44,370 bases of DNA. It comes from a virus (lineage: Duplodnaviria > Heunggongvirae > Uroviricota > Caudoviricetes). Made by a program: the position numbers and the translations under genes. Below the pieces are notes generated by a model. That model was not told where the DNA came from and searched no databases. It saw only the letters and a program-made list of their open reading frames with translations. Shown here in pieces: positions 1 through 44,370 of this stretch; the first letter of the stretch is position 1, and each line of letters begins with the position of its first letter. Location of the stretch: the IMG/VR virus record IMGVR_UViG_3300045988_005581; one strand, written 5' to 3'.

Positions 1-119
1 ATTTTTTTTATCTATTTTCTGTGATGACTAGTTGACTATTATCCTCGACCCTATTATATTTACTTCATCGACAACGAGAACGGAGTAGAGAGAAATGGGC
101 AACGTATCGACGATAGAAA
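1..119. repeat. Terminal duplication (copy 1), identical to 44252..44370
   Basis: Bases 1..119 match 44252..44370 exactly by eye; the junction lies in the T-run of the terminator at 44231..44260. Implies a unit length of 44,251 bp; the repeat touches both window edges so its true extent is unknown. Confidence 0.9.
32..60 (+). promoter_or_regulatory. sigma70-like promoter TTGACT-N17-TATATT
   Basis: TTGACT at 32-37, 17-bp spacer, TATATT at 55-60; about 35 nt upstream of the first ORF (ATG 95). Confidence 0.5.
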
Positions 120-295
120 TAACCGAAGAACTCGAAGTTAAATGTATCGCATCAGCTATAATAGGGAATGGTTCGGTGGAAAAACTACAGATGAGGGCTG
201 CTGCGGGCTACATACGCAGGGCTAATAGCGCGCAGACTGATGTTTTACGTAAACGTTACCTCGTGAAAGCGTTAGAAATACTGGAGAATAACTAA
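95..295 (+). CDS. hypothetical small protein (66 aa), first gene of a coupled small-ORF chain
   Basis: ATG at 95 with purine-rich RBS (GGAGTAGAGAGAA); stop overlaps next start (TAATG). No recognisable motif. Confidence 0.6.
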   Translation: MGNVSTIEITEELEVKCIASAIIGNGSVEKLQMRAAAGYIRRANSAQTDVLRKRYLVKALEILENN

Positions 296-2343: not shown

Positions 2344-2408
2344 CCCTTTAGACGCGTAGGGCGCGTCTGGTGCGCTCTGATGGTCAGACGCATATGCAAG
2401 GGGATTCT

Positions 2409-2918
2409 ATGAAGCTGAAACTTAAGCAGCCATCGCCAGAGGTGGTACAAGCTGCACATGAAGAAGCTGTTAGCGCAAACCGTCGCCGTAAACGACCGCG
2501 CGGTAAACAGAGCCTTTATCAATCATCCCGTAATTCCGCCGCGTTGTGGGACCCGGGCTATTGCGATGCACTAATCGAGTTCTTCGACCGCACGTCGTGG
2601 GAGCTTGTGCCTACGTCTAAGGGTGACGAACGCCCGCTGATTCAGGATAAACCACCGTCACTGGCCCGCTTCGCCTTACACATCGGAGTCACTATCCCGA
2701 TTATTAAGCTTTGGCTGCGTGAGATTCCCGCATTTGCAGAAGCCTGGGAGACAGCACAGGCGCTGGAAGAGGCATACTTCACTGAAACGGGGGCCGCGGG
2801 CATCTCTGCTACGTTTGCTGCCGCGAAACTGGGCCTGAATAAAACAGTTGTCGCCGAAGAAGTACGCGACGAGCCAATCAGCGAAGTAACAATTAAGGTG
2901 GTGTCCGGTGAACGTTAA
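2409..2918 (+). CDS. terminase small subunit (putative)
   Basis: ATG 2409 with AAGGGG RBS (tool start 2370 lies upstream); basic N-terminal region; located immediately upstream of and overlapping the large terminase. Assignment by position and composition. Confidence 0.6.
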   Translation: MKLKLKQPSPEVVQAAHEEAVSANRRRKRPRGKQSLYQSSRNSAALWDPGYCDALIEFFDRTSWELVPTSKGDERPLIQDKPPSLARFALHIGVTIPIIKLWLREIPAFAEAWETAQALEEAYFTETGAAGISATFAAAKLGLNKTVVAEEVRDEPISEVTIKVVSGER

Positions 2919-4179
2919 TATCACGGCAACGGAGCCGCAAGGCGCGTTTCTCGGTATGCATTGCAAGTTTCCGGCATTCGTAGCTGGCTTCGGTACGGGT
3001 AAATCCGAAGTTATGTGCAACTCTGCACTACTCGACAGCATGGAAGGTGGTAGCGATTCTATCATCGCCATGTATGAGCCGACTTATGACCTGGTGCGCC
3101 TCATCCTTGCACCGCGTATGGAAGAAAAGCTCACCGACTGGGGTATCCGGTACAAATACAACAAGTCTGACAACATAATCTATACGTCTTCCGGACAATT
3201 TGGGGATTTTGTTCTGCGTACACTTGATAATCCAGCACGAATCGTTGGCTACGAATCGTTTCGTGCGAAAATCGACGAGTTGGACACCCTTAACATGGAG
3301 CACGCCGAGCACGCGTGGAACAAAGTCATCGCCCGTAACCGCCAGTTGCCGCGGACATATAAACCTATTACACCGAAACCTGCTAATACCGTTTCCGTGT
3401 TCACTACCCCGGAAGGATTCCGTTTCGTACATGACCGCTGGGTAGTCAAAAAGAATCCAGGCTACGAGATGATTCAGGCGTCCACCCTGTCTAACCCGTT
3501 CCTGCCAGAAGATTATGTGCAGTCGTTACGCGACACATACCCAGGTCAGTTGATTGACGCCTACATCAACGGCGAGTTCGTCAACCTGACGGCGGGGACT
3601 GTCTATTACGCCTATGACCGCAGGAAAAACAGCAGCCGCGAAACAATAAAACCAGGCGAGACTCTGTATATCGGGCAGGACTTTAACGTAGGCCACATGG
3701 CTAGTACAGTTTACGTGCAACGTGGCAAAGTCTGGCATGCAGTCGCCGAGTTGGTGGATATGTTCGATACGCCCGATGTGGTGAGAGCCGTAACAGAGCG
3801 CTGGAAAAGTAAGGGCCACTATATCGTTATGTACCCCGACGCAAGCGGTAAAAACCGTAAAAGTAACAACGCCAGCACATCTGATATCGCCCAGTTACAG
3901 CAGGCCGGCTTCGAAGTGCGCGCTAAATCGACAAACCCACCGGTTAAAGACCGCGTAGCGGCGATGAATAAGGCGCTTGAATCTGGTATGGTCATGATTA
4001 ATGAACAGGCTTGCCCTGTTACCGCACGATGCCTGGAGCAACAGGCTTACGACAAGAACGGCGAACCGGATAAATCAGGCGGTGTGGACCACCAGAATGA
4101 TGGAACCACATACCCTATCGCGTATGAAATGCCGATTCGCAAACCAGTTATTAACGTCCCGGTGACTTTCGCACTTTAA
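2908..4179 (+). CDS. terminase large subunit
   Basis: Walker A-like GFGTGKS near the N-terminus, 423 aa, followed by portal gene. Tool start is GTG 2908; alternative ATG at 2956. Confidence 0.85.
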   Translation: MNVNITATEPQGAFLGMHCKFPAFVAGFGTGKSEVMCNSALLDSMEGGSDSIIAMYEPTYDLVRLILAPRMEEKLTDWGIRYKYNKSDNIIYTSSGQFGDFVLRTLDNPARIVGYESFRAKIDELDTLNMEHAEHAWNKVIARNRQLPRTYKPITPKPANTVSVFTTPEGFRFVHDRWVVKKNPGYEMIQASTLSNPFLPEDYVQSLRDTYPGQLIDAYINGEFVNLTAGTVYYAYDRRKNSSRETIKPGETLYIGQDFNVGHMASTVYVQRGKVWHAVAELVDMFDTPDVVRAVTERWKSKGHYIVMYPDASGKNRKSNNASTSDIAQLQQAGFEVRAKSTNPPVKDRVAAMNKALESGMVMINEQACPVTARCLEQQAYDKNGEPDKSGGVDHQNDGTTYPIAYEMPIRKPVINVPVTFAL

Positions 4180-4191
4180 GAGGATTATTCA

Positions 4192-5673
4192 ATGTTAACT
4201 ATGAACGGTCAGAATCAGGGTGTTAAGACAAAACACCGGGAATGGCTGCATCACTTCGATAAATGGCAGAAGGTACGCCACGCTCTTGAAGGCGACCTTA
4301 TCCGCTATCTGCGCAACGTCGGGAAGAACGAGCCTGACCAGACCTACGCAGCACAGCGACAGGAAGAATACGAGAACGGCGCTATCTGCTACAATTTCAC
4401 CAAACGCACGCTGGCGGGGATGACGGGGTCAGTGATGCGCAAAGACCCTGAGCAGATTATCCCGCCTGAACTTGAGTACCTGTTGCACAACGCTGACGGT
4501 TCAGGTGTCGGGCTGTGGCAGCACGCGCAGGATACGCTGATGGAGATTAACTCGATAGGCCGTGGCGGGTTGCTGGTGGACGCCCCGGAAACAGCCGCAG
4601 CAACGGCGGCAGAGCAGAACGCGGGATTATTAAACCCGGTAATCGCATTCTATACCGCGGAGAACATTATCAACTGGAGACTCACCCGCATCGGTTCAGT
4701 GAACCGCGTGACGATGGTTGTATTGCGTGAGGCATGGGAATACTCGGAACCAGGCGCTGAGTTTGAAACAAAATTCGGCGAGCAATACCGCGTCCTTGAC
4801 CTGATTGACGGTCGCTACCGCCAGCGCATCTACCGCTTCGATGCCGAAGGTGGCGCACAGGATGAAGTAATCGAAATCTTCCCGGAACTCGGCGAACAGT
4901 TGCGCGGTAAAATCCCGTTCACGTTCATTGGCGCAAGCAACAACGACGCCACTATAGACGATGCGCCTTTACTGCCGTTAGCTGAGCTAAATATAGGACA
5001 CTTCAGAAATTCGGCCGATGTGGAAGAGGCCAGCTTTATAGTAGGTCAACCGACACTGTTCATTGCCCCCGGCGAGAACATGAGCATGGAGCAGTGGAAA
5101 GAAGCCAACCCACACGGCATACGCATGGGGTCGCGTTCAGGCCACAACATCGGCTCCGGCGGAAATGCGTTTCTGGTTCAGGCGGCGGAAACTAACCTCG
5201 CCAAACAGAACATGCTGGATAAAGAGAATCAGGCCATCCAGATTGGCGCGCAGCTTATCACCCCGACGCAGCAAATCACCGCGGAATCGGCCCGCCTGCA
5301 ACGCGGCGCCGACACGTCAGTCATGGCAACAATAGCACGTAATGTAAGCATGGCGTATACCGATGCGTTGCGCTGGGTTGCGGGTATGCTTGGGCTTAGT
5401 GAAGATACTGAGATTGAGTTCAAGCTGAATATGGAATTCTTCCTGCAACCGATGACCGCTCAGGACCGCGCTCAGTGGATGGCGGATATTAACGCTGGCC
5501 TGCTACCCGCCACCGCTTACTATGCTGCGTTGCGCAAGGCAGGTGTGACTGACTGGACAGATGAGGACATTCAGAACGCTATTGAAGACGCACCTCTGCC
5601 GTTGGGTTCTGTTGCTCAGGTAGCGGGAGAGATTCCGCAGTCGGCGCAGCAACAGGACACCACTCAGCAGTAA
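4192..5673 (+). CDS. portal protein
   Basis: 493 aa directly downstream of TerL, strong RBS AAGAGGA, acidic Gln-rich C-terminus; assignment by size and synteny. Confidence 0.8.
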   Translation: MLTMNGQNQGVKTKHREWLHHFDKWQKVRHALEGDLIRYLRNVGKNEPDQTYAAQRQEEYENGAICYNFTKRTLAGMTGSVMRKDPEQIIPPELEYLLHNADGSGVGLWQHAQDTLMEINSIGRGGLLVDAPETAAATAAEQNAGLLNPVIAFYTAENIINWRLTRIGSVNRVTMVVLREAWEYSEPGAEFETKFGEQYRVLDLIDGRYRQRIYRFDAEGGAQDEVIEIFPELGEQLRGKIPFTFIGASNNDATIDDAPLLPLAELNIGHFRNSADVEEASFIVGQPTLFIAPGENMSMEQWKEANPHGIRMGSRSGHNIGSGGNAFLVQAAETNLAKQNMLDKENQAIQIGAQLITPTQQITAESARLQRGADTSVMATIARNVSMAYTDALRWVAGMLGLSEDTEIEFKLNMEFFLQPMTAQDRAQWMADINAGLLPATAYYAALRKAGVTDWTDEDIQNAIEDAPLPLGSVAQVAGEIPQSAQQQDTTQQ

Positions 5674-7602: not shown

Positions 7603-7631
7603 TTGACTTTTCACTAAAAATATGATAAGCT
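7603..7631 (+). promoter_or_regulatory. promoter P_A: TTGACT-N17-TGnTAAGCT (extended -10)
   Basis: TTGACT 7603-7608, 17-bp spacer, TG 7623-7624, TAAGCT 7626-7631. Identical core promoter at 39890..39918. Preceded by the perfect palindrome ACTATTCGAATAGT (7590-7603). Confidence 0.6.
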
Positions 7632-7637
7632 CCACCT

Positions 7638-7838
7638 GAGCTTGTGAAGTATGAACAAGCGACCGCGGCGCGGGCAGGTAACGGAGCGGGACGTAAGTCC
7701 TGAGTGTAGTTACGCTGACGCGTTCGGAAGGGCCATACTCTATTGCTTGTGTAAAAAGTAACAGGTTTACTTAGATTACGCCGTTTCTATGTTTAAATGA
7801 TAAGGACTAGCGCCCTGCTTTAAGGCAGGGCTTTACTT
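7638..7838 (+). ncRNA. candidate short terminated transcript / structured leader (element A)
   Basis: Region between P_A and the terminator at 7812..7838; shares a 43-nt identical 5' arm (7626-7668) and a 23-nt identical 3' arm (7723-7745) with element B at 39913-40032. Not shown to be transcribed. Confidence 0.35.
7812..7838 (+). terminator. intrinsic terminator 18 nt upstream of the spanin start
   Basis: GCCCTGC (7812-7818) / GCAGGGC (7825-7831), loop TTTAAG, then TTTACTT. Confidence 0.6.
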
Positions 7839-13424: not shown

Positions 13425-14591
13425 ATGGCTACAACTCCTTTTAAGGGCGCGAATACCGCGCAATTCTATGTGGCGGAAACTACCCCTGGCGTAACACCGA
13501 CTAACCCGGTATGGTCGCCGTTGCGTAACACGGGCGGCGTTCCCGCTGTAACCCGCGATGCACTGACTTCCAACGAACTGGACGGCAGCCGTGAAACTAC
13601 ATCCATCCGAACCGGTAACAAGCAGGTTAGCGGGGAGTATGCCATCGAACTTAGCTCTCGTAGCCAGGATGATTTCCTTGCGGGAGCGATGACTTCTACG
13701 TGGCAAGCTGGGGTAGAGATTACTGGCGCCGAAATTACGGTCGCCCCAGCAGGTAAAACATTCACCCGCGCTGCTGGTAGCTTCATTACTGGCGGTGTAG
13801 AAGTTGGCGACCTTATTGCGTTCACCGACTTAACCGGCGACAACGCAAAACCGTTTATCGTGACCGCGGTTTCCGCTCTGGTAGTTACGGGCGCAGGTAT
13901 TCAGCACACGCTGACAGCAGAGACAGTAACCACTGACGCAAAAACTGGCGACAAGCTGGAAACCGGTAACGCGTGTAAGACGTTCTCCATCCTGACGTGG
14001 TTCAAGGGCCAGTGTGGTAACCCGGACGCGTACATGCTGACCAAAGGTGTGGAAATCTCTGGCTTTACCGTAGAGCAGGCGGTTAACGCCATGGTCACCG
14101 GCAGCTTCCCGTTCATCGGCCTTAGTCAGGAGATTCTTACCGCGCCGCCGTCTGGCTCTGATTTCTCTCAGGTTACGTTCACCGATGAGCCGTTCTCGTC
14201 GGTAGATGTGTCGGTGTTCGATGGCTCCACGCCGTTGCGTTGCGATACTCTCACCATCACCAACGACAACGGAGCTTCCGCGCAGTTCGAACTCGGTAAC
14301 AGTAGCGTGGCGTTCGTCGAACGTGGACGCGCAGCTAACACATTCTCTATCTCTGGCAAGCTGTACGACATGGCGATGATTCAGAAGTTTATCAACGAGC
14401 AGCAGGTAGAGATTAACTCTATTCTGGCAGGGGTAAACGGGGCTATGTCTTTCAGTTTGAAACGTGCAGAGCTTACGGCGGTTACACCTGAGATTGGTGG
14501 GCCTGAGTCAATCACTCAGTCCATTGAAGGCCAGGCTACCGGCAATCGGTACCAGTCGTCTATCGTAATTCAACGTATCACCTACGCATAA
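13425..14591 (+). CDS. major tail (tube) protein
   Basis: ATG 13425 with AAGAGG RBS (tool start 13419 is GTG); about 388 aa, Thr/Gly/Ser-rich; followed by a strong terminator and precedes the chaperone/tape-measure genes. Confidence 0.7.
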   Translation: MATTPFKGANTAQFYVAETTPGVTPTNPVWSPLRNTGGVPAVTRDALTSNELDGSRETTSIRTGNKQVSGEYAIELSSRSQDDFLAGAMTSTWQAGVEITGAEITVAPAGKTFTRAAGSFITGGVEVGDLIAFTDLTGDNAKPFIVTAVSALVVTGAGIQHTLTAETVTTDAKTGDKLETGNACKTFSILTWFKGQCGNPDAYMLTKGVEISGFTVEQAVNAMVTGSFPFIGLSQEILTAPPSGSDFSQVTFTDEPFSSVDVSVFDGSTPLRCDTLTITNDNGASAQFELGNSSVAFVERGRAANTFSISGKLYDMAMIQKFINEQQVEINSILAGVNGAMSFSLKRAELTAVTPEIGGPESITQSIEGQATGNRYQSSIVIQRITYA

Positions 14592-14596
14592 AACTA

Positions 14597-14620
14597 AGGC
14601 CCCTTTCGGGGCCTTTTTCT
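14597..14620. terminator. bidirectional intrinsic terminator
   Basis: AGGCCCC (14597-14603) / GGGGCCT (14608-14614), loop TTTC, T-runs on both strands; separates the tail-shaft operon from the convergent minus-strand cassette. Confidence 0.7.
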
Positions 14621-25171: not shown

Positions 25172-27157
25172 ATGTCAAGCGGATGCGGTGACGTTTTAAG
25201 CCTGGCGGATTTACAGACCGCCAAGAAACATCAGATTTTCGAGGCCGAGGTTATCACTGGCAAATCCTGCGGTGTAGCTACGGGTGCAGACATTGATTAC
25301 GCAACAAATCAGGTTACCGGGCAGACGCAGAAGACGCTTCCTGCCGTGTTGCGCGACGCGGGTTTTTCTCCTGTGTCATGGGATTTCTCCACAGGCGGCA
25401 CGTTAACCGTTAACGACCGGGACAAGGTGGTGTATGACCCTGTTAGCAAAACATGGTACTCGTACGCAGGTACGTTACCAGTTGTTGTCCCTGCATCGTT
25501 TAATCCAGTCGGTAACGCTAACTGGAAGCCGCAGACAGACCCAAATTTGCGTAATGATTTGGCGTCAAGTACCGCCGGTTTAGGGGCTTCACTGGTGTCT
25601 TTTTCCAACGGTAACACCGTTGAAACATTATCTGACGCGGAAGGTGCCAAGAACATAGGCAGTGGCGAAAGGAGTTTGCTTGCACGTAACAATGATATTA
25701 AGCATTCTGGCGACTTTTCTACCCTTCAAGCCGCGGTAGATGCGTCGTTAACTAAAAACGACTTAATTGTTTCTCCGGGTGAGTATACAGAAGCAATCAC
25801 TCTGGGTAGTAAGCAGATAAAAGGTGTAGGTGGTGCTGCAATATTAAAACCATCGGCAAACTATGCAAATACTGTACAGGTTAATTTATCCACCCCGCAC
25901 TGGCAGTTTCGACACAGCGGTGGTTTTGCCGTAGATGGTACAGGTACAACTGGGGCCGTAGGTATTAGTTTTGACCCGTCAGACCAATATTCCGGACGTC
26001 ATAATTTTAGTGATTTATACATCCACAACATCAACAAGGCCATTCAGAAGCCTTCCGGGAACATCGGTAATACATGGAGAAATATTGGGGTATCTACGTG
26101 TGATTGGGGGTATTACGCGATTAGTGGCTCAGAGATGCATTGCGGGGCCGATACCCTCTACAATATCCACTTCGACGGCATCTCCACCTATGCCGTCTAC
26201 CTAAACGGCACTGTCGATAACGGCGGGATAGGCGGATGGTGGCTTAAAGACTCCATTATTGAGGCTTCCGGAGGCGGCGGGATATATTTAAAAAGCAAAT
26301 CAGGTGACTGCCCTACATCTCCATGCGGGGTATCCAATGTATGGACGGACGCGATTGCAACATCATCGGCTGTTCAGGTAGACGGCGTGGCGCAAAAACC
26401 GCGAGTTCTCAAGTTGGTAGACACCGCGATATTCTTTGCTGAGTATTCTTATCTCAACAACATCGAGCTATCCAACTCCAACTTAGTAACTTATGGTTGC
26501 CGTTTTGACAACGCCGATGGTAATCAGGATATTGTAGTGGATGCACAAAGCACCATCGTAGCCCACGACGTGTATTTAAACGGCAGCTCTGGAAAGGACG
26601 TTATTGTAGAGTCTGTCGCGTCGCAATCCGCAACGATAGCCACTACAAACTTGTCTCTACGAGGAAATTTAACAAGGGGACGAGTGTTTAATACGCCGAC
26701 GGGGAATAAGTTAAAAGCTATCACATTTGACTCAGGTAGCTGTAATTTTTCTGGTAGCGGTACCGTTAACGGTTCGACTGTATCTGACGGACTTCACGCC
26801 GCTACATGTACCGAATTTTCATTCCCTGGGTCCGGTTTATATGAAATGGTAGCGTCAAGAACGACACTTACATCCGGTAGATGGTACGTGTGGGGCGTCA
26901 ACTCTCGCCTCCAATCAGGAACAGCAGATGTGAGTATAACGTCAGGTATTACTATGGGTAGCGTTTATACTAAGTCTGGTGAGTGGATTAGCACATTTGG
27001 GGTGGGTAAAGCTTCCGCTAACGGTACTGTAGGTCTGTACGTCTCTACTGGGGGAGGTTCAGGTGCTGTTATCAGATTTAGTGACTTCTTCATCGCTGAG
27101 TTTACGACGCAGGCTCAGGCTTTAGCTTTCGCTAACTCCCGAATGTCGTTGGCTTAA
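25172..27157 (+). CDS. tail fibre / tailspike with beta-helix-like receptor-binding domain
   Basis: 661 aa; RBS AAGAGGA; N-terminal anchor-like region followed by Gly/Asn/Ser/Thr/Val-rich repeats typical of right-handed beta-helix folds; last gene of the tail operon, followed by a terminator. Confidence 0.75.
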   Translation: MSSGCGDVLSLADLQTAKKHQIFEAEVITGKSCGVATGADIDYATNQVTGQTQKTLPAVLRDAGFSPVSWDFSTGGTLTVNDRDKVVYDPVSKTWYSYAGTLPVVVPASFNPVGNANWKPQTDPNLRNDLASSTAGLGASLVSFSNGNTVETLSDAEGAKNIGSGERSLLARNNDIKHSGDFSTLQAAVDASLTKNDLIVSPGEYTEAITLGSKQIKGVGGAAILKPSANYANTVQVNLSTPHWQFRHSGGFAVDGTGTTGAVGISFDPSDQYSGRHNFSDLYIHNINKAIQKPSGNIGNTWRNIGVSTCDWGYYAISGSEMHCGADTLYNIHFDGISTYAVYLNGTVDNGGIGGWWLKDSIIEASGGGGIYLKSKSGDCPTSPCGVSNVWTDAIATSSAVQVDGVAQKPRVLKLVDTAIFFAEYSYLNNIELSNSNLVTYGCRFDNADGNQDIVVDAQSTIVAHDVYLNGSSGKDVIVESVASQSATIATTNLSLRGNLTRGRVFNTPTGNKLKAITFDSGSCNFSGSGTVNGSTVSDGLHAATCTEFSFPGSGLYEMVASRTTLTSGRWYVWGVNSRLQSGTADVSITSGITMGSVYTKSGEWISTFGVGKASANGTVGLYVSTGGGSGAVIRFSDFFIAEFTTQAQALAFANSRMSLA

Positions 27158-27162
27158 AACTA

Positions 27163-27185
27163 AGGCCCCAAACGGGGCCTTTTCT
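27163..27185. terminator. intrinsic terminator closing the tail operon (bidirectional-looking)
   Basis: AGGCCCC (27163-27169) / GGGGCCT (27174-27180), loop AAAC, then TTTTCT. Confidence 0.7.
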
Positions 27186-30093: not shown

Positions 30094-30381
30094 CTAACTA
30101 TAATAGTTTGCTATTAGGTCGTCAACCTGTTTAAACGAACCAACGACAAAAACATTTGCACCGCGTTTACGCATCCGCTCATGCTCACGTAACTGGTGCG
30201 GGTCTGGCTTCGTGTTTTCGTCTTTCTTAACCTCGACAAACCAGATGATACCGCCAGGGAGAATTACCAGCAGGTCGGGAGCGCCGGAACGTCCTTCGTA
30301 GGAGAGCTTGCGAACGAGGCCGCCGAGGGCCTCGAATCGCTCTTTTGCGTATTTCTGTATGCGCCCCTCAGGCGTACTCAT
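30094..30381 (-). CDS. VRR-NUC domain nuclease
   Basis: 95 aa with PDLLVILP...VEVKK, the PD-(D/E)xK-type signature typical of VRR-NUC proteins. Confidence 0.7.
   Translation of the reverse strand: MSTPEGRIQKYAKERFEALGGLVRKLSYEGRSGAPDLLVILPGGIIWFVEVKKDENTKPDPHQLREHERMRKRGANVFVVGSFKQVDDLIANYYS
30097..30125 (-). promoter_or_regulatory. sigma70-like promoter TTGACG-N17-TATAGT (minus strand) with embedded dyad
   Basis: On the minus strand: TTGACG = 30120-30125, TATAGT = 30097-30102; dyad AATAG-N4-CTATT 30102-30115. Confidence 0.5.
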
Positions 30382-33450: not shown

Positions 33451-33505
33451 TTCTCGATTCCTCAGTTTTCAGTTTACTCCGGGAGCTGCCCGGCCAGTGA
33501 TTAGA

Positions 33506-33534
33506 ACTATAATAGCTAACTATTCAGGTGTCAA
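33506..33534 (-). promoter_or_regulatory. sigma70-like promoter TTGACA-N17-TATAGT (minus strand) with embedded dyad
   Basis: On the minus strand: TTGACA = 33529-33534, TATAGT = 33506-33511; dyad AATAG-N4-CTATT 33511-33524. Confidence 0.55.
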
Positions 33535-36283: not shown

Positions 36284-36311
36284 ATCCGCCCCTCTCGTTT
36301 GGTATGGGCTA

Positions 36312-36340
36312 ACTATAATAGCGAACTATTCACATGTCAA
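36312..36340 (-). promoter_or_regulatory. sigma70-like promoter TTGACA-N17-TATAGT (minus strand) with embedded dyad
   Basis: On the minus strand: TTGACA = 36335-36340, TATAGT = 36312-36317; dyad AATAG-N4-CTATT 36317-36330. A second imperfect dyad AATAT-N4-CTATT lies at 36361-36374. Confidence 0.55.
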
Positions 36341-36948: not shown

Positions 36949-39197
36949 TCCAAATCCTCCTCGGTCACTGTCAGCATTTCATTCGGCTCGTATATTGTCT
37001 TCGGAATCTTGTTATCTGTTATCATGGTGTTCAGTCTGTAACGGCCTGGGATTATCTGATTGTTTTCGTCAGTACCCGGAACAAGATACCCAGCCTCAAC
37101 CATTTTCTTAATCTTCCCGCGTTCTATGGCTTCTTTGGAGTTAAACGCCTTTGCGTTGGGGTCAGACTGCGCGAGCTTATTCGCTGCGGATACCGTGATG
37201 CCCTCGTTGCCGTTGTAGGTCCCCTCCGCCAGTTCAAACGCCGCGAGTATCGTGGCCTCGGAACTGTTGACGGCGTTCTCTATGGTTTTACGTACATTTT
37301 GTTTACCTTCGTTAGTTAACCCTTCTTCCCTCTCTTTCTCCTCGTCGGTCTTGAATGGCTCGAAGCCCCACGGCATCAATACAAGCGCCTTGTGCGGCTC
37401 AGGCAGGTCGAGGTTTACTATTGTGCCGTATTCCTCTGTGCTACCGAGGAACTCAACCGCGCGGTACTCTTTCGGCGGCGGTGCTTCACGGAACTGTACA
37501 GACTCCAGTACCATGCCAACCGTCTTCTGTTGCGGACCGTGCTTAAATTTAGAGTGGTATACGTTTATCTGACGGTCGGTAGCGCGTTCGATTGTCAGTT
37601 CCACGTCGACACCCGCATACAATGCTCCACTGCCGCGGGCTTTCTTTCCGCCCTTCGGAGTATGGTGAACGACACCGACAGCGGCTTTAGTTGCATCGCG
37701 CACTTCTTTCAGGATGGCGATAACTTTACCCATACCGATTGCCGTTGATGAACTGTTCTCGTCGAACTTATCAATCGTCAGGGCCAGCGTCTGGTTAAGG
37801 GTGTCGAAGGCAACCATGCCAATAGGTTCATCCCCCGCGGTTTCGCGCATCCTGCGGATTAGAGCTGGAATTTTTTTATCACCATGCGTAGCGAGTATTT
37901 CGCCCATATCGATGACATGTACATAATCTTTACCTTCCTCGCCATATTTAGCCGCGAGTGCATCAATACGTGTTCGTGTAGCTGCACCACCCTCGCCGTC
38001 AATATAGAAATGGTGGCAACGTTGGGTGTCAGCCCCCGCAAACCGGTACCCGGCGGCGCTCAGGTACATCATCCCCAGCGTATAGAATGATTTGTACGTG
38101 CCGGATTCCCCGACAATATCCCAGATACAATCCGACGGCATGTACCCCTCAACGACGAAATCAGCCTTTACCGGTTCTGGTAACTCGTCCTCTTCTTCAA
38201 GGTCTTCCAGCGTGCAAGTTACAGGCTCCTCGTTCTCTGTGCGGTGCAGTTCTTCAATCTCTTCATCCGGTAAATCAGGCAGAGCCGCACGAATGCTGTT
38301 AATACTGATAGGTTGCTTGTCTACGTTAAGCTCGTCTGGCAGGCCGCACATACGCAGGGCCAAATGCTGTCGGCGGTTAAGCTCGGTGCAAGCGCCGTTG
38401 TTTGTATGCTGGCACACAAAGCGCACTTCTTTACCATCAAGCATGATGCTTGTGGAGCCTTTGCCTGTATGCAGATGTTCGTTAGGGCATGGGACTTCGT
38501 ACCCGCGCCCGGAAGATAAAGCGTCAAGGCCAAGCTCGGCTTCGCAGAAATGCGCTATATCAGCATTAAGCCCATACTCATCGGCGGCAAGTGTCTTAAC
38601 TTCACGTTTACTCAACCCCATCTCTTCGGCTTTCTTGATGTACCGCTCGGCACGGATAACACGCCCTTCTGTAACCGTTATCTTTGACTCTCTATGTGGC
38701 AGATAGATAAGGCGGTTGCCGTCTTCCGTGCAGTGGTCACGCAAGGCTTCATCTATTTCTAACTCTGCACAAATAGCCCGTTGGACCATCCACGCGTCGT
38801 TAGAGTTAAACGGCGTGCGAGCCGGAACCAGAACGCGGAAGGCGTAATCACCGTTTTTACACACATGCTGATGCGATGCCGTTGTATGCAGAATATTGAA
38901 GAACGGTGCGTTCTTGAATTTGCGGGTAAGGTCGCGGTACTGAGTACGGTTGAGATGGTCAAAATCGAACTTAACCACACTGTCTTCCAGGATAGCGTTT
39001 TTACGGCGACCCCCAACAGGCGCAATAGCTTTCTGCTTAATCTTGGCAGCGTCGTACTCTTCCTTAGACCACGACGGATCCACGGATAAACGCTTCGATG
39101 TATCGCAGACATACTCCACAAACTGCTCGAGCGGCATCTCACGCGCTACAGGGTTTTTATCGAATGTGTTGCGCAGCGTTGCAAAAACAATATTCAT
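36945..39197 (-). CDS. primase-polymerase / replicative helicase fusion protein
   Basis: 750 aa; N-terminal region with AEP-like VVKFDFDH and Cys/His cluster; C-terminal RecA-like domain with Walker A GESGTYKS and Walker B-like VAFDTLNQ. Confidence 0.8.
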   Translation of the reverse strand: MNIVFATLRNTFDKNPVAREMPLEQFVEYVCDTSKRLSVDPSWSKEEYDAAKIKQKAIAPVGGRRKNAILEDSVVKFDFDHLNRTQYRDLTRKFKNAPFFNILHTTASHQHVCKNGDYAFRVLVPARTPFNSNDAWMVQRAICAELEIDEALRDHCTEDGNRLIYLPHRESKITVTEGRVIRAERYIKKAEEMGLSKREVKTLAADEYGLNADIAHFCEAELGLDALSSGRGYEVPCPNEHLHTGKGSTSIMLDGKEVRFVCQHTNNGACTELNRRQHLALRMCGLPDELNVDKQPISINSIRAALPDLPDEEIEELHRTENEEPVTCTLEDLEEEDELPEPVKADFVVEGYMPSDCIWDIVGESGTYKSFYTLGMMYLSAAGYRFAGADTQRCHHFYIDGEGGAATRTRIDALAAKYGEEGKDYVHVIDMGEILATHGDKKIPALIRRMRETAGDEPIGMVAFDTLNQTLALTIDKFDENSSSTAIGMGKVIAILKEVRDATKAAVGVVHHTPKGGKKARGSGALYAGVDVELTIERATDRQINVYHSKFKHGPQQKTVGMVLESVQFREAPPPKEYRAVEFLGSTEEYGTIVNLDLPEPHKALVLMPWGFEPFKTDEEKEREEGLTNEGKQNVRKTIENAVNSSEATILAAFELAEGTYNGNEGITVSAANKLAQSDPNAKAFNSKEAIERGKIKKMVEAGYLVPGTDENNQIIPGRYRLNTMITDNKIPKTIYEPNEMLTVTEEDLE

Positions 39198-39889: not shown

Positions 39890-39918
39890 TTGACTTTTAC
39901 TAAGAAATGTGCTAAGCT
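39890..39918 (+). promoter_or_regulatory. promoter P_B: TTGACT-N17-TGnTAAGCT (extended -10)
   Basis: TTGACT 39890-39895, 17-bp spacer, TG 39910-39911, TAAGCT 39913-39918; same hexamers and spacing as P_A at 7603..7631. Confidence 0.6.
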
Positions 39919-39924
39919 CCACCT

Positions 39925-40160
39925 GAGCTTGTGAAGTATGAACAAGCGACCGCGGTGCGGCAGGAAACGGAGCGGTGCGTCAGCACTGAGTGTAGTGTCG
40001 CTGCCTGCATTCGGAAGGGCCATACTCTATTGTAAATCCCGTCTAAATAACCCAAGTCACTAATAATTAAAAGTTTCTATAGTTGCCGTAAGCAAGGTAG
40101 AGAGTACTTCACTCCGCTGGGGTGGGCTAAAGCCCACCCGCTGCGTTGCGTACTCTTTAA
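39925..40160 (+). ncRNA. candidate short terminated transcript / structured leader (element B)
   Basis: Paralogue of element A: identical 43-nt and 23-nt arms flanking a 54-nt core with about 12 substitutions and one indel; followed by GC hairpin GGTGGGC-TAAA-GCCCACC (40121-40138) and a U-rich stretch. Not shown to be transcribed. Confidence 0.35.
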
Positions 40161-40227: not shown

Positions 40228-40261
40228 TCACTTATCGGAACGAGACAGAGGAGTGATGGTT

Positions 40262-40447
40262 ATGTTTAAGAAGGGTCAGTTGGTTAAAACAAAACGCGGC
40301 GGACAGTACGTAATAGTTACCCAGAATGAGGATGAATATAGTACCGCTGTAGACGTATGGGGTCTTGTACGAAAGAAACATGGTTACGCTTTCAGAGATA
40401 ATTTAACACTCATCGGCAACAATTTTAAATTCAAAGGGGTGAAGTGA
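40262..40447 (+). CDS. hypothetical small protein (61 aa)
   Basis: ATG 40262 with GAGGAG RBS at correct spacing (tool start 40253 is GTG); first ORF of a translationally coupled chain. Confidence 0.55.
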   Translation: MFKKGQLVKTKRGGQYVIVTQNEDEYSTAVDVWGLVRKKHGYAFRDNLTLIGNNFKFKGVK

Positions 40448-40680
40448 TGCAAATCATAATTACAGATAACACCGTTATCTACGAAGAAGATGGTGATACT
40501 CTCGAGAAAATAGGCGTAAATGTGGGTGATGTTTTCAATGTACTGGATTCCTGTGAGGATGGCTGGTGGATTAAGACAGGAAGATACACAATCCCGGTAA
40601 CTAAGGCAGAAGCGAAGGTATACACAACGGCATCTAATCATGATGCTCGTGCCGACGACTCTGAGGGAGGTTGCCGTTAA
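40447..40680 (+). CDS. hypothetical acidic protein (77 aa)
   Basis: ATG 40447 overlapping upstream stop (TGATG), RBS AGGGGTG. Confidence 0.55.
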   Translation: MQIIITDNTVIYEEDGDTLEKIGVNVGDVFNVLDSCEDGWWIKTGRYTIPVTKAEAKVYTTASNHDARADDSEGGCR

Positions 40681-40835
40681 TGAAAATTCGAATAACTGAC
40701 CGCAGGCTTATAGATTTCGGTATCTCGGTAGGTGATGTTTTTCTGGCGTTCAGCAGCAACCATTATGGTTTTATGATTGAGTACAAAGGGTCATTATTGT
40801 TCGTGTATCGGGATGAATGCGAGGTTCTGGTATGA
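40680..40835 (+). CDS. hypothetical small protein (51 aa)
   Basis: TAATG coupling upstream and ATGA coupling downstream; not in ORF track. Confidence 0.4.
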   Translation: MKIRITDRRLIDFGISVGDVFLAFSSNHYGFMIEYKGSLLFVYRDECEVLV

Positions 40836-40993
40836 GAGAAGCATTCGAACGGTGGGCCATCGTCGAGGGTCTGCCGGTTAATAAGGGTTCGAAGAAAGAG
40901 TACCTGAACGTTAAGACGCGTCTCGCGTGGCGGGCGTGGAAAGCTGGTGCGAATGTAATGGCTGGCGCATTTGAGAAGAGAGGCGATTTATGA
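40832..40993 (+). CDS. hypothetical small protein (53 aa)
   Basis: ATGA coupling at both ends; not in ORF track. Confidence 0.4.
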   Translation: MREAFERWAIVEGLPVNKGSKKEYLNVKTRLAWRAWKAGANVMAGAFEKRGDL

Positions 40994-41175
40994 GCAAGTG
41001 GATTAAGTGTAGTGAGCGGATGCCGGAGCCTTATGAATACGTTCTTGTAACTGATTGTTTTGTTGGCTGTGAGGTTATGCGTGTTAATTCAGATGGCTAC
41101 TGGGGGCCTGCAAAGAGTTTATATCACGGTGATATAACGCACTGGATGCCGTTACCTGAGCCGCCGGAGGTGTGA
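40990..41175 (+). CDS. DUF551-like protein
   Basis: C-terminal ITHWMPLPEPPE matches the DUF551 signature; paralogue of 34961..35218. Confidence 0.6.
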   Translation: MSKWIKCSERMPEPYEYVLVTDCFVGCEVMRVNSDGYWGPAKSLYHGDITHWMPLPEPPEV

Positions 41176-41333
41176 TGTTCAATAGTTTGGGATTTTACTG
41201 AGTGACTTACGCTGCTACACAGCAGCGTACAACTTTAACTTAGTGTCGTCAAAAAGCGACACTTCCCTAAAACACTGTTGGTGCTGGAATAAAGTGTCTC
41301 CGATTAGCGACACTAAGCACCAATAAAATTTAC

Positions 41334-41362
41334 TTGCACACTGGGATAGAATAGACTACTAT
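41334..41362 (+). promoter_or_regulatory. sigma70-like promoter TTGCAC-N17-TACTAT with embedded dyad
   Basis: TTGCAC 41334-41339, TACTAT 41357-41362; perfect dyad GAATAG-N4-CTATTC at 41349-41364. Confidence 0.55.
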
Positions 41363-41392
41363 TCATTTACACAGACGGGAGGAGAGACAGAG

Positions 41393-41542
41393 ATGGTTAC
41401 TTTGATGGTTATGGAATTCGAAAACAGCGCAGCAACTTACCGTGAGATGACTATGGCGCAGGCATATCACCTGGCCTCAAACGGCAACTTCTACAAGGCT
41501 CAAATCATCAATGAGTTCGGGGTAATTGACTATGAATTTTAG
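41393..41542 (+). CDS. hypothetical small protein (49 aa)
   Basis: ATG 41393 with GGGAGGAGAG RBS; not in ORF track. Confidence 0.4.
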   Translation: MVTLMVMEFENSAATYREMTMAQAYHLASNGNFYKAQIINEFGVIDYEF

Positions 41543-41810
41543 CAGCTACACCGTGACTGTTGATTTTGAGGGGCTGGAGTTGCCCCTCCCTAACAACTAC
41601 CGGTACATAACTCGCGATAGTAACGGGTTTATTCAGGGGTGGCGGAACAAACCGACAGACACCGAGTTCGGGATGTCAGGAGGAGGAGAAGAGTTGCCGA
41701 TCACGTTCGGGCACCAAAGTAGTAATGAAGAACTTAAAACTGTGATTCGTAAGTACCGCCGCCGCCGCGGCAACACGGGGCTTATCGCAATAACAGGCGC
41801 TGTTGAATAA
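41532..41810 (+). CDS. hypothetical protein (92 aa)
   Basis: ATG 41532 overlapping the preceding ORF (tool start 41526 is TTG); basic C-terminus RKYRRRRGNTG. Confidence 0.5.
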   Translation: MNFSSYTVTVDFEGLELPLPNNYRYITRDSNGFIQGWRNKPTDTEFGMSGGGEELPITFGHQSSNEELKTVIRKYRRRRGNTGLIAITGAVE

Positions 41811-41828
41811 ACGAGAGGAGAGGCAGAG

Positions 41829-41942
41829 ATGTACAGCGAATTTGATTTGTGGGACGTGGTTCTTATGTGGGCCTCCGGGGAAGATGTTGTTTGCGACTGC
41901 GACACGTTAAGTATCATATGCGAGGAGCCAGAAGATGAGTAA
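41829..41942 (+). CDS. possible 37-aa acidic peptide
   Basis: ATG 41829 with GAGAGGAGAGG RBS; stop overlaps next start. Speculative. Confidence 0.3.
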   Translation: MYSEFDLWDVVLMWASGEDVVCDCDTLSIICEEPEDE

Positions 41943-42372
41943 CAAAAACGAAGTATTCGAGTACCTGATTGACCAACTACGGCAGCAGCTAAATAACAAC
42001 CCATACAAGCAACAGTGCGAAGACCTGGCCCATGAGGTGCCGTCACTCAAGAACCAGTTACGTGATGCGTCGGCGCAGATTAAGGAGTTGCATACGGCTC
42101 TGGTCAAAGCTACGGGTGACGTGGAGGCGTACAAACTTATCCGCAATGGTGAACATGGACCTGAGCAATCTGGCTGCCGTAAAGAAGACGTGCAGGAATG
42201 CAGGCATGATTGGGTTCTGGACGAAAAAGGGGACTACTTCGTTTGCTATAAGCGCGGTAAGCAAGAAGCGGAATTGAGCGATTGCCCACACGCTAATACC
42301 GTCGGTTTGCGCAAAGGCTTTGCGCCGGGTTTTACTAAAAAGTGTCTTGATTGCGGGGCTAAACTGAAATGA
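41935..42372 (+). CDS. hypothetical protein with C-terminal zinc-ribbon-like motif (145 aa)
   Basis: Coiled-coil-like N-terminus; C-terminal CPH...C..CG. Confidence 0.55.
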   Translation: MSNKNEVFEYLIDQLRQQLNNNPYKQQCEDLAHEVPSLKNQLRDASAQIKELHTALVKATGDVEAYKLIRNGEHGPEQSGCRKEDVQECRHDWVLDEKGDYFVCYKRGKQEAELSDCPHANTVGLRKGFAPGFTKKCLDCGAKLK

Positions 42373-43433: not shown

Positions 43434-43698
43434 GTTATTCTGGTTTGGTGGTATGCTCGCAATCGGGAGCACATCGCTGTTTAACGTATACCACCCCAGC
43501 GTAGATGATGGGCTGTTCGGGCGTGTGCTTTATATTCTGACTGCTATTGTCTGCGCCGCCGGTTGTATCCACTTGTTACAGGGCAGCATGTCACCTACGC
43601 TGCCTGAGACATTAATCACATTAGTTGCGCTGCGTCAGATTCGCCAGGCGTGGCTGTCATACGGAGGACATAAGCGTGTCTCGAAACATTTCAGATAA
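43426..43698 (+). CDS. second membrane protein of the lysis cassette (holin/antiholin-like)
   Basis: ATG 43426 overlapping the holin stop; two hydrophobic segments; 3' end overlaps the endolysin start. Confidence 0.5.
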   Translation: MNELFWFGGMLAIGSTSLFNVYHPSVDDGLFGRVLYILTAIVCAAGCIHLLQGSMSPTLPETLITLVALRQIRQAWLSYGGHKRVSKHFR

Positions 43699-44164
43699 TG
43701 GGTTGCATTTCACCGCAGCATTTGAGGGATTCCGCGGAACCGCGTATCGCGCTACGCCAAATGAGAAGTACCTGACTATTGGGTACGGTCATTATGGGCC
43801 AGACGTAACGCCAGGCAAGACCATCACCCCGGGACAAGGCCTCCTGTTACTGAATCGTGATATGGCTAAGGCCGTAGCTGCGGTTGACGCAGCAGCACAC
43901 CATTCATTGACACAGGCACAGTTCGATGCAGTGTGCGACCTGGTATACAACGCAGGTGCTGGTGTGATTGCTGCTACTACCGGCACGGGTAAGGCACTGC
44001 GTTCTGGTGATATTGCAACGCTGCGGGCTAAGCTGGCGCTGTTCATCAACCAGAACGGCAAACCGATACTTGGACTGCGTCGTCGTACCGCCGGTCGTCT
44101 GGCGCTGTTCGACGGTAAACCGTGGCAGGAGGCTGAGGCTATCGGGCGCGCGGTGAAAGGTTGA
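43676..44164 (+). CDS. endolysin, lysozyme-like (GH24-type)
   Basis: GTG start 43676 with GGAGGA RBS; FEGFRGTAY...TIGYGH resembles the catalytic region of T4/lambda-type lysozymes (recalled). Confidence 0.8.
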   Translation: MSRNISDNGLHFTAAFEGFRGTAYRATPNEKYLTIGYGHYGPDVTPGKTITPGQGLLLLNRDMAKAVAAVDAAAHHSLTQAQFDAVCDLVYNAGAGVIAATTGTGKALRSGDIATLRAKLALFINQNGKPILGLRRRTAGRLALFDGKPWQEAEAIGRAVKG

Positions 44165-44230
44165 CACATAAGACTAATCCGACGATACTTAAATCACCTC
44201 CTGCTCCATCCCTCTGCTCTCCAGTTTTAT

Positions 44231-44260
44231 CCCGGCCCTGACCCAGCCGGGATTTTTTTT
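44231..44260 (+). terminator. strong intrinsic terminator after the lysis cassette
   Basis: CCCGGC (44231-44236) / GCCGGG (44246-44251), 9-nt loop, then eight consecutive T (44253-44260). Confidence 0.75.
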
Positions 44261-44370
44261 ATCTATTTTCTGTGATGACTAGTTGACTATTATCCTCGAC
44301 CCTATTATATTTACTTCATCGACAACGAGAACGGAGTAGAGAGAAATGGGCAACGTATCGACGATAGAAA
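44252..44370. repeat. Terminal duplication (copy 2), identical to 1..119
   Basis: Exact repeat of the window start, including the promoter at 32..60 and the first 25 nt of the first ORF. Confidence 0.9.

Follow-up and report, generated by a model that had tools for sequence, protein, structure and literature searches.

The 119-bp duplication at the ends of the window (the whole stretch of DNA analysed here, 44,370 bp) is almost certainly an artefact of assembling a circular path and represents no biological feature of the phage. The first-pass annotation had left two options side by side, an assembly overlap and a genuine direct terminal repeat (DTR). The former is supported by the k-sized length of the duplication, by a breakpoint that ranks first in the sort order of the graph in two contigs, and by a 55-bp overlap at another place in NODE_139, a contig carrying the identical genome. 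The latter found no support, as the length equals a k value of MEGAHIT, the breakpoint coincides with the colexicographic minimum, and the junction is situated in the interior of related sequences.

In the whole-window comparison, positions 44,252–44,370 and 1–119 were identical at 119 of 119 bases, so that the exact duplication described earlier holds base for base. No longer sequence is both the prefix and the suffix of the window, and the two copies form the very first and the very last bases of the contig. As an exact match of 119 bases cannot be accidental (its chance origin has a probability of about 4^-119 per position pair), the window comprises one 44,251-bp unit (G+C content, 50.5%) and 119 additional bases; hence the size of the genome unit proposed in the first-pass annotation is confirmed by the same identity of prefix and suffix. 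The repeat search revealed no further copy of the 119-bp sequence, or of its first 30 bases, elsewhere in the window. The 5' copy (1–119) is genuine genome sequence, containing the T-tract of a terminator, a putative promoter and the beginning (25 nt) of a small ORF; the 3' copy (44,252–44,370) is redundant and is regarded here as the k = 119 overlap from a cyclic path in the de Bruijn graph, neither copy being assigned to a strand.

The length of the duplication belongs to the k-list of MEGAHIT (21, 29, 39, 59, 79, 99, 119, 141; COBRA paper, PMC10914622), and contigs from both MEGAHIT and metaSPAdes are reported to retain end sequences as long as maxK (PMC10914622). Similarly, SPAdes gave identical 77-bp contig ends on circularly permuted phage genomes, where the right-hand copy was removed (PMC9409062). 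Names in the MEGAHIT style, k119_128671 and k141_99454, are found among ENA contigs of this phage group. When a cycle comprising 44,251 edges is spelled out as a string, it has 120 + 44,250 = 44,370 bases, in exact agreement with the length of the window. With the k-mer-length overlaps of circular de Bruijn contigs the window shares the exact match of prefix and suffix, the k-sized length and a position independent of genes. Compared with the known k-mer end overlaps, nothing essential differs, the added detail being that here the breakpoint can be traced to a sort-order minimum, the U-tract of a terminator.

The duplication most probably arose in the following way. Short reads from the phage would form a closed cycle in the de Bruijn graph at k = 119, and the assembler, which we infer to be most probably MEGAHIT, would print this cycle linearly, passing through all 44,251 edges a single time. 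Such a linear spelling of a cycle would necessarily repeat the first k bases at the end. The circle would be opened at the first edge in the colexicographic order, that is, at the k-mer whose last bases form the longest A-run; on the opposite strand, this run corresponds to the terminator U-tract located 3' of the endolysin gene. A MEGAHIT loop contig of the 44,251-bp circle would then begin with ATTTTTTTTATC or its reverse complement. By its source code, MEGAHIT presumably opens isolated loops at the smallest (lowest-indexed) edge.

We ranked all 88,502 (k+1)-mers of the circle, taken from both strands, colexicographically by k-mer, which is the order used in the succinct de Bruijn graph. Rank 1 of 88,502 was taken by the reverse complement of positions 1–120. 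This minus-strand (k+1)-mer, which fixes the breakpoint, ends in ...GATAAAAAAAA followed by T and hence is the first edge in the colexicographic order. It takes this rank because no other A/T homopolymer in the genome is as long as the T8 tract at 2–9; the next edge in the order that lies outside this tract has rank 3 and corresponds to a T7 run at 37,871. Allowing for four candidate edges and two orderings, the chance of a rank-1 breakpoint is about 9e-5.

The same was observed for an independently assembled sister contig, IMGVR_UViG_3300045988_002593 (43,922 bp), which was rebuilt in full and has the same first and last bases as the window. It carries a 119-bp overlap, has a unit of 43,803 bp, and its breakpoint edge has rank 1 of 87,606, while its identity to the window ranges from 88 to 99.6% across aligned blocks, with indels. 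The ends common to the two contigs follow from a shared colexicographic minimum, and no physical terminus is needed to explain them; accordingly, the interpretation of the shared ends as a real terminus was rejected, the common minimum accounting for both. The sort-order rule has been demonstrated for two contigs, the window and the sister contig. In 16 further IMG/VR relatives, neither a start of the type 'N + T-run' nor an end of the type 'A-run + N' was found; for 15 of these one end was seen, the signature being one-ended, and they possibly come from other assemblers or are non-circular. The counterpart of the T-run is interior in two relatives with MEGAHIT-style names, k141_99454 (L066) and k119_128671 (L065), which need not represent closed circles.

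The window and the sister contig differ mainly in the early region 5' of the lysis cassette (40,250–42,355 of the window versus 7,283–9,216 of L001), where blocks of 89–99% identity are split by indels; outside the early region, the identity is 96–99.6% in the compared sequence. Differences of this kind among small ORFs are typical of mosaic variation.

The sequence at the junction is unremarkable, consisting of the terminator of the lysis cassette, a putative promoter and a small ORF. The last gene on its 5' side encodes an endolysin of 162 aa (43,676–44,164, plus strand; Phage_lysozyme PF00959, E = 1e-26), which also matches PHROG endolysin families and has its counterpart in the lysin gene at 817–1,305 of MZ234010. 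An intrinsic-terminator-like hairpin with a T8 tract (44,229–44,260, plus strand) lies 3' of this gene and spans the junction. It was identified by folding, since the terminator scanner had skipped it due to a loop of 9 nt exceeding the scanner limit of 8. The hairpin (44,229–44,253) has a folding energy of -13.8 kcal/mol (z = -2.1), its stem is formed by 44,229–44,236 and 44,246–44,253 with the G+C core CCCGGC/GCCGGG at 44,231–44,236 and 44,246–44,251, and the T8 tract occupies 44,253–44,260. The hairpin region is retained in relatives, with T-runs of 7–10 (20 loci).

The earlier reading had placed the junction in the U-tract of the endolysin terminator. The assignment to the terminator stands, but the junction does not fall inside the T-tract; it is situated between the G+C stem and the T-tract, with the A at 44,252 preceding T8. 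Since no A/T run of the genome is longer than the U-tract, the seemingly meaningful position of the junction at the terminator is a by-product of k-mer sorting and no sign of a physical end.

On the other side of the junction, a candidate sigma-70-like promoter, TTGACT-17 nt-TATATT, is predicted by consensus match only (10 of 12 positions) at 32–60 on the plus strand, and its second copy is at 44,283–44,311; thus the duplicated stretch would contain a complete promoter, in agreement with the first-pass annotation. It also contains, as had been noted there, the start of the first small ORF (66 codons; 95–295, plus strand), whose ATG at 95 recurs at 44,346 and of which only the first 25 nt belong to the duplicated stretch. 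This ORF corresponds to a hypothetical protein gene at 1,487–1,687 of MZ234010, and a 66-aa gene was called at the equivalent place in L068, L071, L078, L079, L080 and L082; profile searches gave no Pfam or PHROG match for its product.

In related phages the sequence runs through the junction without interruption. A 971-nt query spanning it was aligned in one piece and in the interior of the record in 116 GenBank records. The match to MZ234010 (541–1,511) is 97.3% identical, and all 971 positions are aligned without gaps both there and in MZ576217 and PQ435593. A shorter query of 401 nt was contiguous in 20 out of 20 loci (L063–L082; NCBI, ENA and Logan assemblies), being ungapped and 100% identical in five of them. 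Among the related records and contigs, no start at window position 1 was seen except in the sister contig 3300045988_002593. They begin at many other positions, and their ends are not conserved; hence the positional conservation of ends among close relatives that would be expected of a genuine DTR is not observed. The circle closes with no sequence missing at the junction, as it does for a circularly permuted genome packaged by the headful mechanism.

The identical genome was also found in an assembly opened at another place. The ENA contig NODE_139_length_44306 (ERZ784187; SPAdes naming) has a common prefix and suffix of 55 bases and, again, a unit of 44,251 bp. We observed no mismatches to the window in the 15.2 kb compared, including 9.3 kb across the window junction, which is an interior position of NODE_139 (30,343|30,344). 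The breakpoint of NODE_139 corresponds to window positions 13,909–13,963, inside the tail-tube gene; it was predicted from coordinates, the start being located via the predicted product of the cut gene and the end via an exact flank. The exact tailspike and TerL of the window are present on several contigs of 44,306 bp, a length equal to 44,251 + 55; three such contigs were found in addition to NODE_139. In a relative, 3300045988_013455, the overlap likewise comprises 55 bp and lies inside a tail gene. Like 119, the value of 55 is an assembler k. The unit remains constant while the overlap differs in length and place, therefore both length and place follow the software.

As the window sequence probably derives from a bulk metagenome, and the same genome recurs in several metagenome assemblies, in which intracellular replication intermediates and concatemers are sampled as well, the sequenced molecule might have been a covalently closed circle, such as a replicative or plasmid-like form from infected cells. 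We consider this unlikely, given the description of Kagunaviruses as virulent siphophages (PMC11990801). The same circular graph results from concatemers and from permuted virion DNA, so the data cannot separate them from a closed circle, and the 119-bp copy would remain an artefact either way.

Apart from the question of its ends, the 44,251-bp genome apparently recurs in independent metagenome assemblies (ERZ784187, ERZ784147, ERZ28644644 and ERZ28646244), and the exact 661-aa tailspike is found on eight contigs. The strain would thus seem to be widely distributed and highly stable.

By sequence comparison, the phage is a Kagunavirus-like siphophage of E. coli (Guernseyvirinae, Sarkviridae). 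The first 20 kb of the window matched 494 records, mostly of Salmonella and Escherichia phages of Guernseyvirinae. The closest isolate is Escherichia phage vB_EcoS-22664BS2 (MZ234010; Guernseyvirinae, Kagunavirus), whose identity of 92.8% over 100% of the query is the best seen for the first 20 kb only and should not be taken as whole-genome identity. The gene order in MZ234010 is the same as in the window: holins, endolysin, small ORFs, TerS, TerL and portal, the latter being encoded in the window at 4,192–5,673 on the plus strand (DUF4055).

Several other features of this genome were recorded. A 71-nt direct repeat (7,603–7,673 and 39,890–39,960, plus strand; 89% identical) starts with TTGACT, includes a small inverted repeat AAGCTC..GAGCTT, and looks like a promoter or leader element duplicated at two distant sites. 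The IMG/VR contig 3300045988_013548 starts inside a copy of this element (GACAGGAAATATGCTAAGCTCGTCCTGAGCTTGTGAAGTATGAAC), which would fit an assembly break at a repeat longer than k. A 30-nt motif occurs three times, at 30,096–30,125, 33,505–33,534 and 36,311–36,340 (AACTATAATAGC.AACTATTCA..GTCAA; 77–100% identical). Its reference copy reads TTGACA-17 nt-TATAGT on the minus strand, and the three motifs are probably related promoters of the minus-strand block of replication genes. Two near-identical G+C hairpins, at 14,586–14,617 and 27,152–27,183 (AAGGCCCC-loop-GGGGCCTTTT), are found where plus-strand and minus-strand blocks meet, 3' of the tail-tube gene and 3' of the tailspike gene, respectively; they look like bidirectional terminators.

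Some close relatives carry insertions at two places. An HNH_3 endonuclease gene (171–177 aa) is located directly 5' of the endolysin gene in L066, L074, L080 and L081, and in L065 (6,836–8,773) the Mu_F-like head protein has 645 aa versus the usual ~347–358 aa, an intein being annotated there in GenBank relatives. The window has neither the HNH_3 insertion nor the insertion in the Mu_F-like head protein.

The real ends of virion DNA are determined by the terminase genes. In the window these encode the small subunit, TerS (2,370–2,918, plus strand; phrog_3064 'terminase'), and the large subunit, TerL (2,908–4,179, plus strand; Terminase_6N and Terminase_6C). TerL is 88.9% identical to that of Salmonella phages Kenya-K2 and Kenya-K68, which, judging by their names, presumably come from the Kenyan study of K47 and may belong to its Jerseyvirus (MT1) group. 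Judged by TerL identity, the terminase does not group with known DTR packagers, and TerL had no match among the PDB sequences at E ≤ 0.01, which offer no structural anchor for the packaging class. Its identity is ~89% to the TerL of Salmonella phages of the Jerseyvirus type and only ~54% to that of Kagunavirus K1ind2, LF7074P1 and L AB-2017, which suggests that, at the sequence level, there may be two terminase types within Kagunavirus, or that the packaging module has been exchanged.

An assembly is expected to close into a circle whether the genome is circular, circularly permuted or terminally repetitive, thus the 119-bp copy is uninformative with respect to the physical ends. Terminus analyses of related phages are available in several cases. 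For Jerseyvirus K47 from Kenya, PhageTerm indicated P1-like headful packaging, the EcoRV map was circular-like and PFGE gave a broad band (PMC10783031); the Kenyan Jerseyvirus group falls together with P1 and uses headful packaging (PMC10783031). For the Guernseyvirinae phage Se_F1, PhageTerm reported redundant, random and permuted ends (PMC9409062). For the Kagunavirus fBC-Eco01, whose structural region shares 88% identity with that of the window, a PhageTerm analysis at 651x yielded no termini (PMC9825357). A literature search on the terminal redundancy of Jersey-like phages returned no match. Based on the TerL identity and on the terminus analyses of the related phages, we infer that the virion DNA is most likely linear, terminally redundant and circularly permuted as a result of headful packaging. 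As with headful phages such as P22 and P1, K47 and Se_F1, the genome of the window is circular in every assembly, and it has a Jerseyvirus-like TerL; however, headful redundancy spans kilobases at variable positions, whereas the repeat in the window is a fixed sequence of 119 bp.

The duplication could be artefactual and the virion DNA nevertheless have fixed ends elsewhere, in the form of either cohesive (cos) ends or a DTR that the assembler had collapsed. Genomes with cohesive ends or collapsed repeats also circularise in short-read assemblies. In cos phages, genes span the contig ends (PMC9409062). One phage of Sarkviridae is listed with 'termini not determined', and the fBC-Eco01 paper loosely mentions a cos site, giving no data on it (PMC9825357). 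Against this, the analyses within the subfamily yielded permuted random ends (Se_F1) and headful packaging (K47), fBC-Eco01 had no termini in spite of its coverage, and TerL is close to those of Kenya-K2 and Kenya-K68. Besides, the repeat search in the window found no repeats longer than 71 nt other than the end overlap, so that no other long repeat could serve as a terminal one; this candidate for the terminal redundancy was rejected. Fixed ends elsewhere are therefore very improbable, and an assembly overlap on a genome probably packaged by the headful mechanism is the reading that we retain.

That the 119 bp themselves are a genuine short DTR, generated by fixed-end packaging of the T7 or T3 type, hardly deserves any credence. 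Short DTRs of 100–300 bp do occur in other phage groups, those of T7-like phages being ~150–250 bp long. The window resembles the T7-like DTR phages in carrying ~100-bp direct repeats at its two linear ends, in non-coding or promoter-rich sequence; exactly these ends are common to two contigs, and the boundary is intergenic and adjoins a terminator. However, unlike the DTRs of T7-like phages, the ends of the window are not conserved, their length is k-sized, their position follows the sort order, and both the terminase type and the published work on relatives indicate headful packaging. The length is that of an assembler k, and the boundary coincides with the colexicographic minimum of the window and of the sister contig alike, which also accounts for the ends that they share. 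The identical genome has a 55-bp overlap at another place; except for the sister contig, no record of a relative starts here, and the junction is interior in the 116 records and the 20 loci. Finally, PhageTerm detected no termini in a Kagunavirus at 651x (PMC9825357), and the experimentally studied Jerseyviruses, together with the Kenya phages sharing the 88.9% identical TerL, point to headful packaging. It is extremely improbable that the breakpoint coincides with a real packaging feature, such as a short terminal repeat or an intergenic site where packaging begins, 3' of the lysis cassette and 5' of the operon leading to the terminase genes, so that the 119 bp would partly represent true ends.

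Being an assembly overlap, the last 119 bases of the window should be removed before any annotation or comparison, any count of genes or any statistics on genome length; in the untrimmed window, the putative promoter and the start of the ORF are counted twice. Completeness tools label self-circular overlaps of this kind 'DTR', and such a flag on the window contig denotes closure of a circular assembly and says nothing about the packaging mode. More generally, the k-mer that terminates in the longest A-run may be where assemblers based on sorted graphs open a circle. Checking whether a breakpoint is the colexicographic minimum provides a way to recognise artefactual contig ends with no reads at hand. 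In phage genomes, the longest A-run is often the U-tract of a terminator, and since the breakpoint then falls at this U-tract, artefactual ends can look biologically placed and recur at the same base when related genomes are assembled independently.
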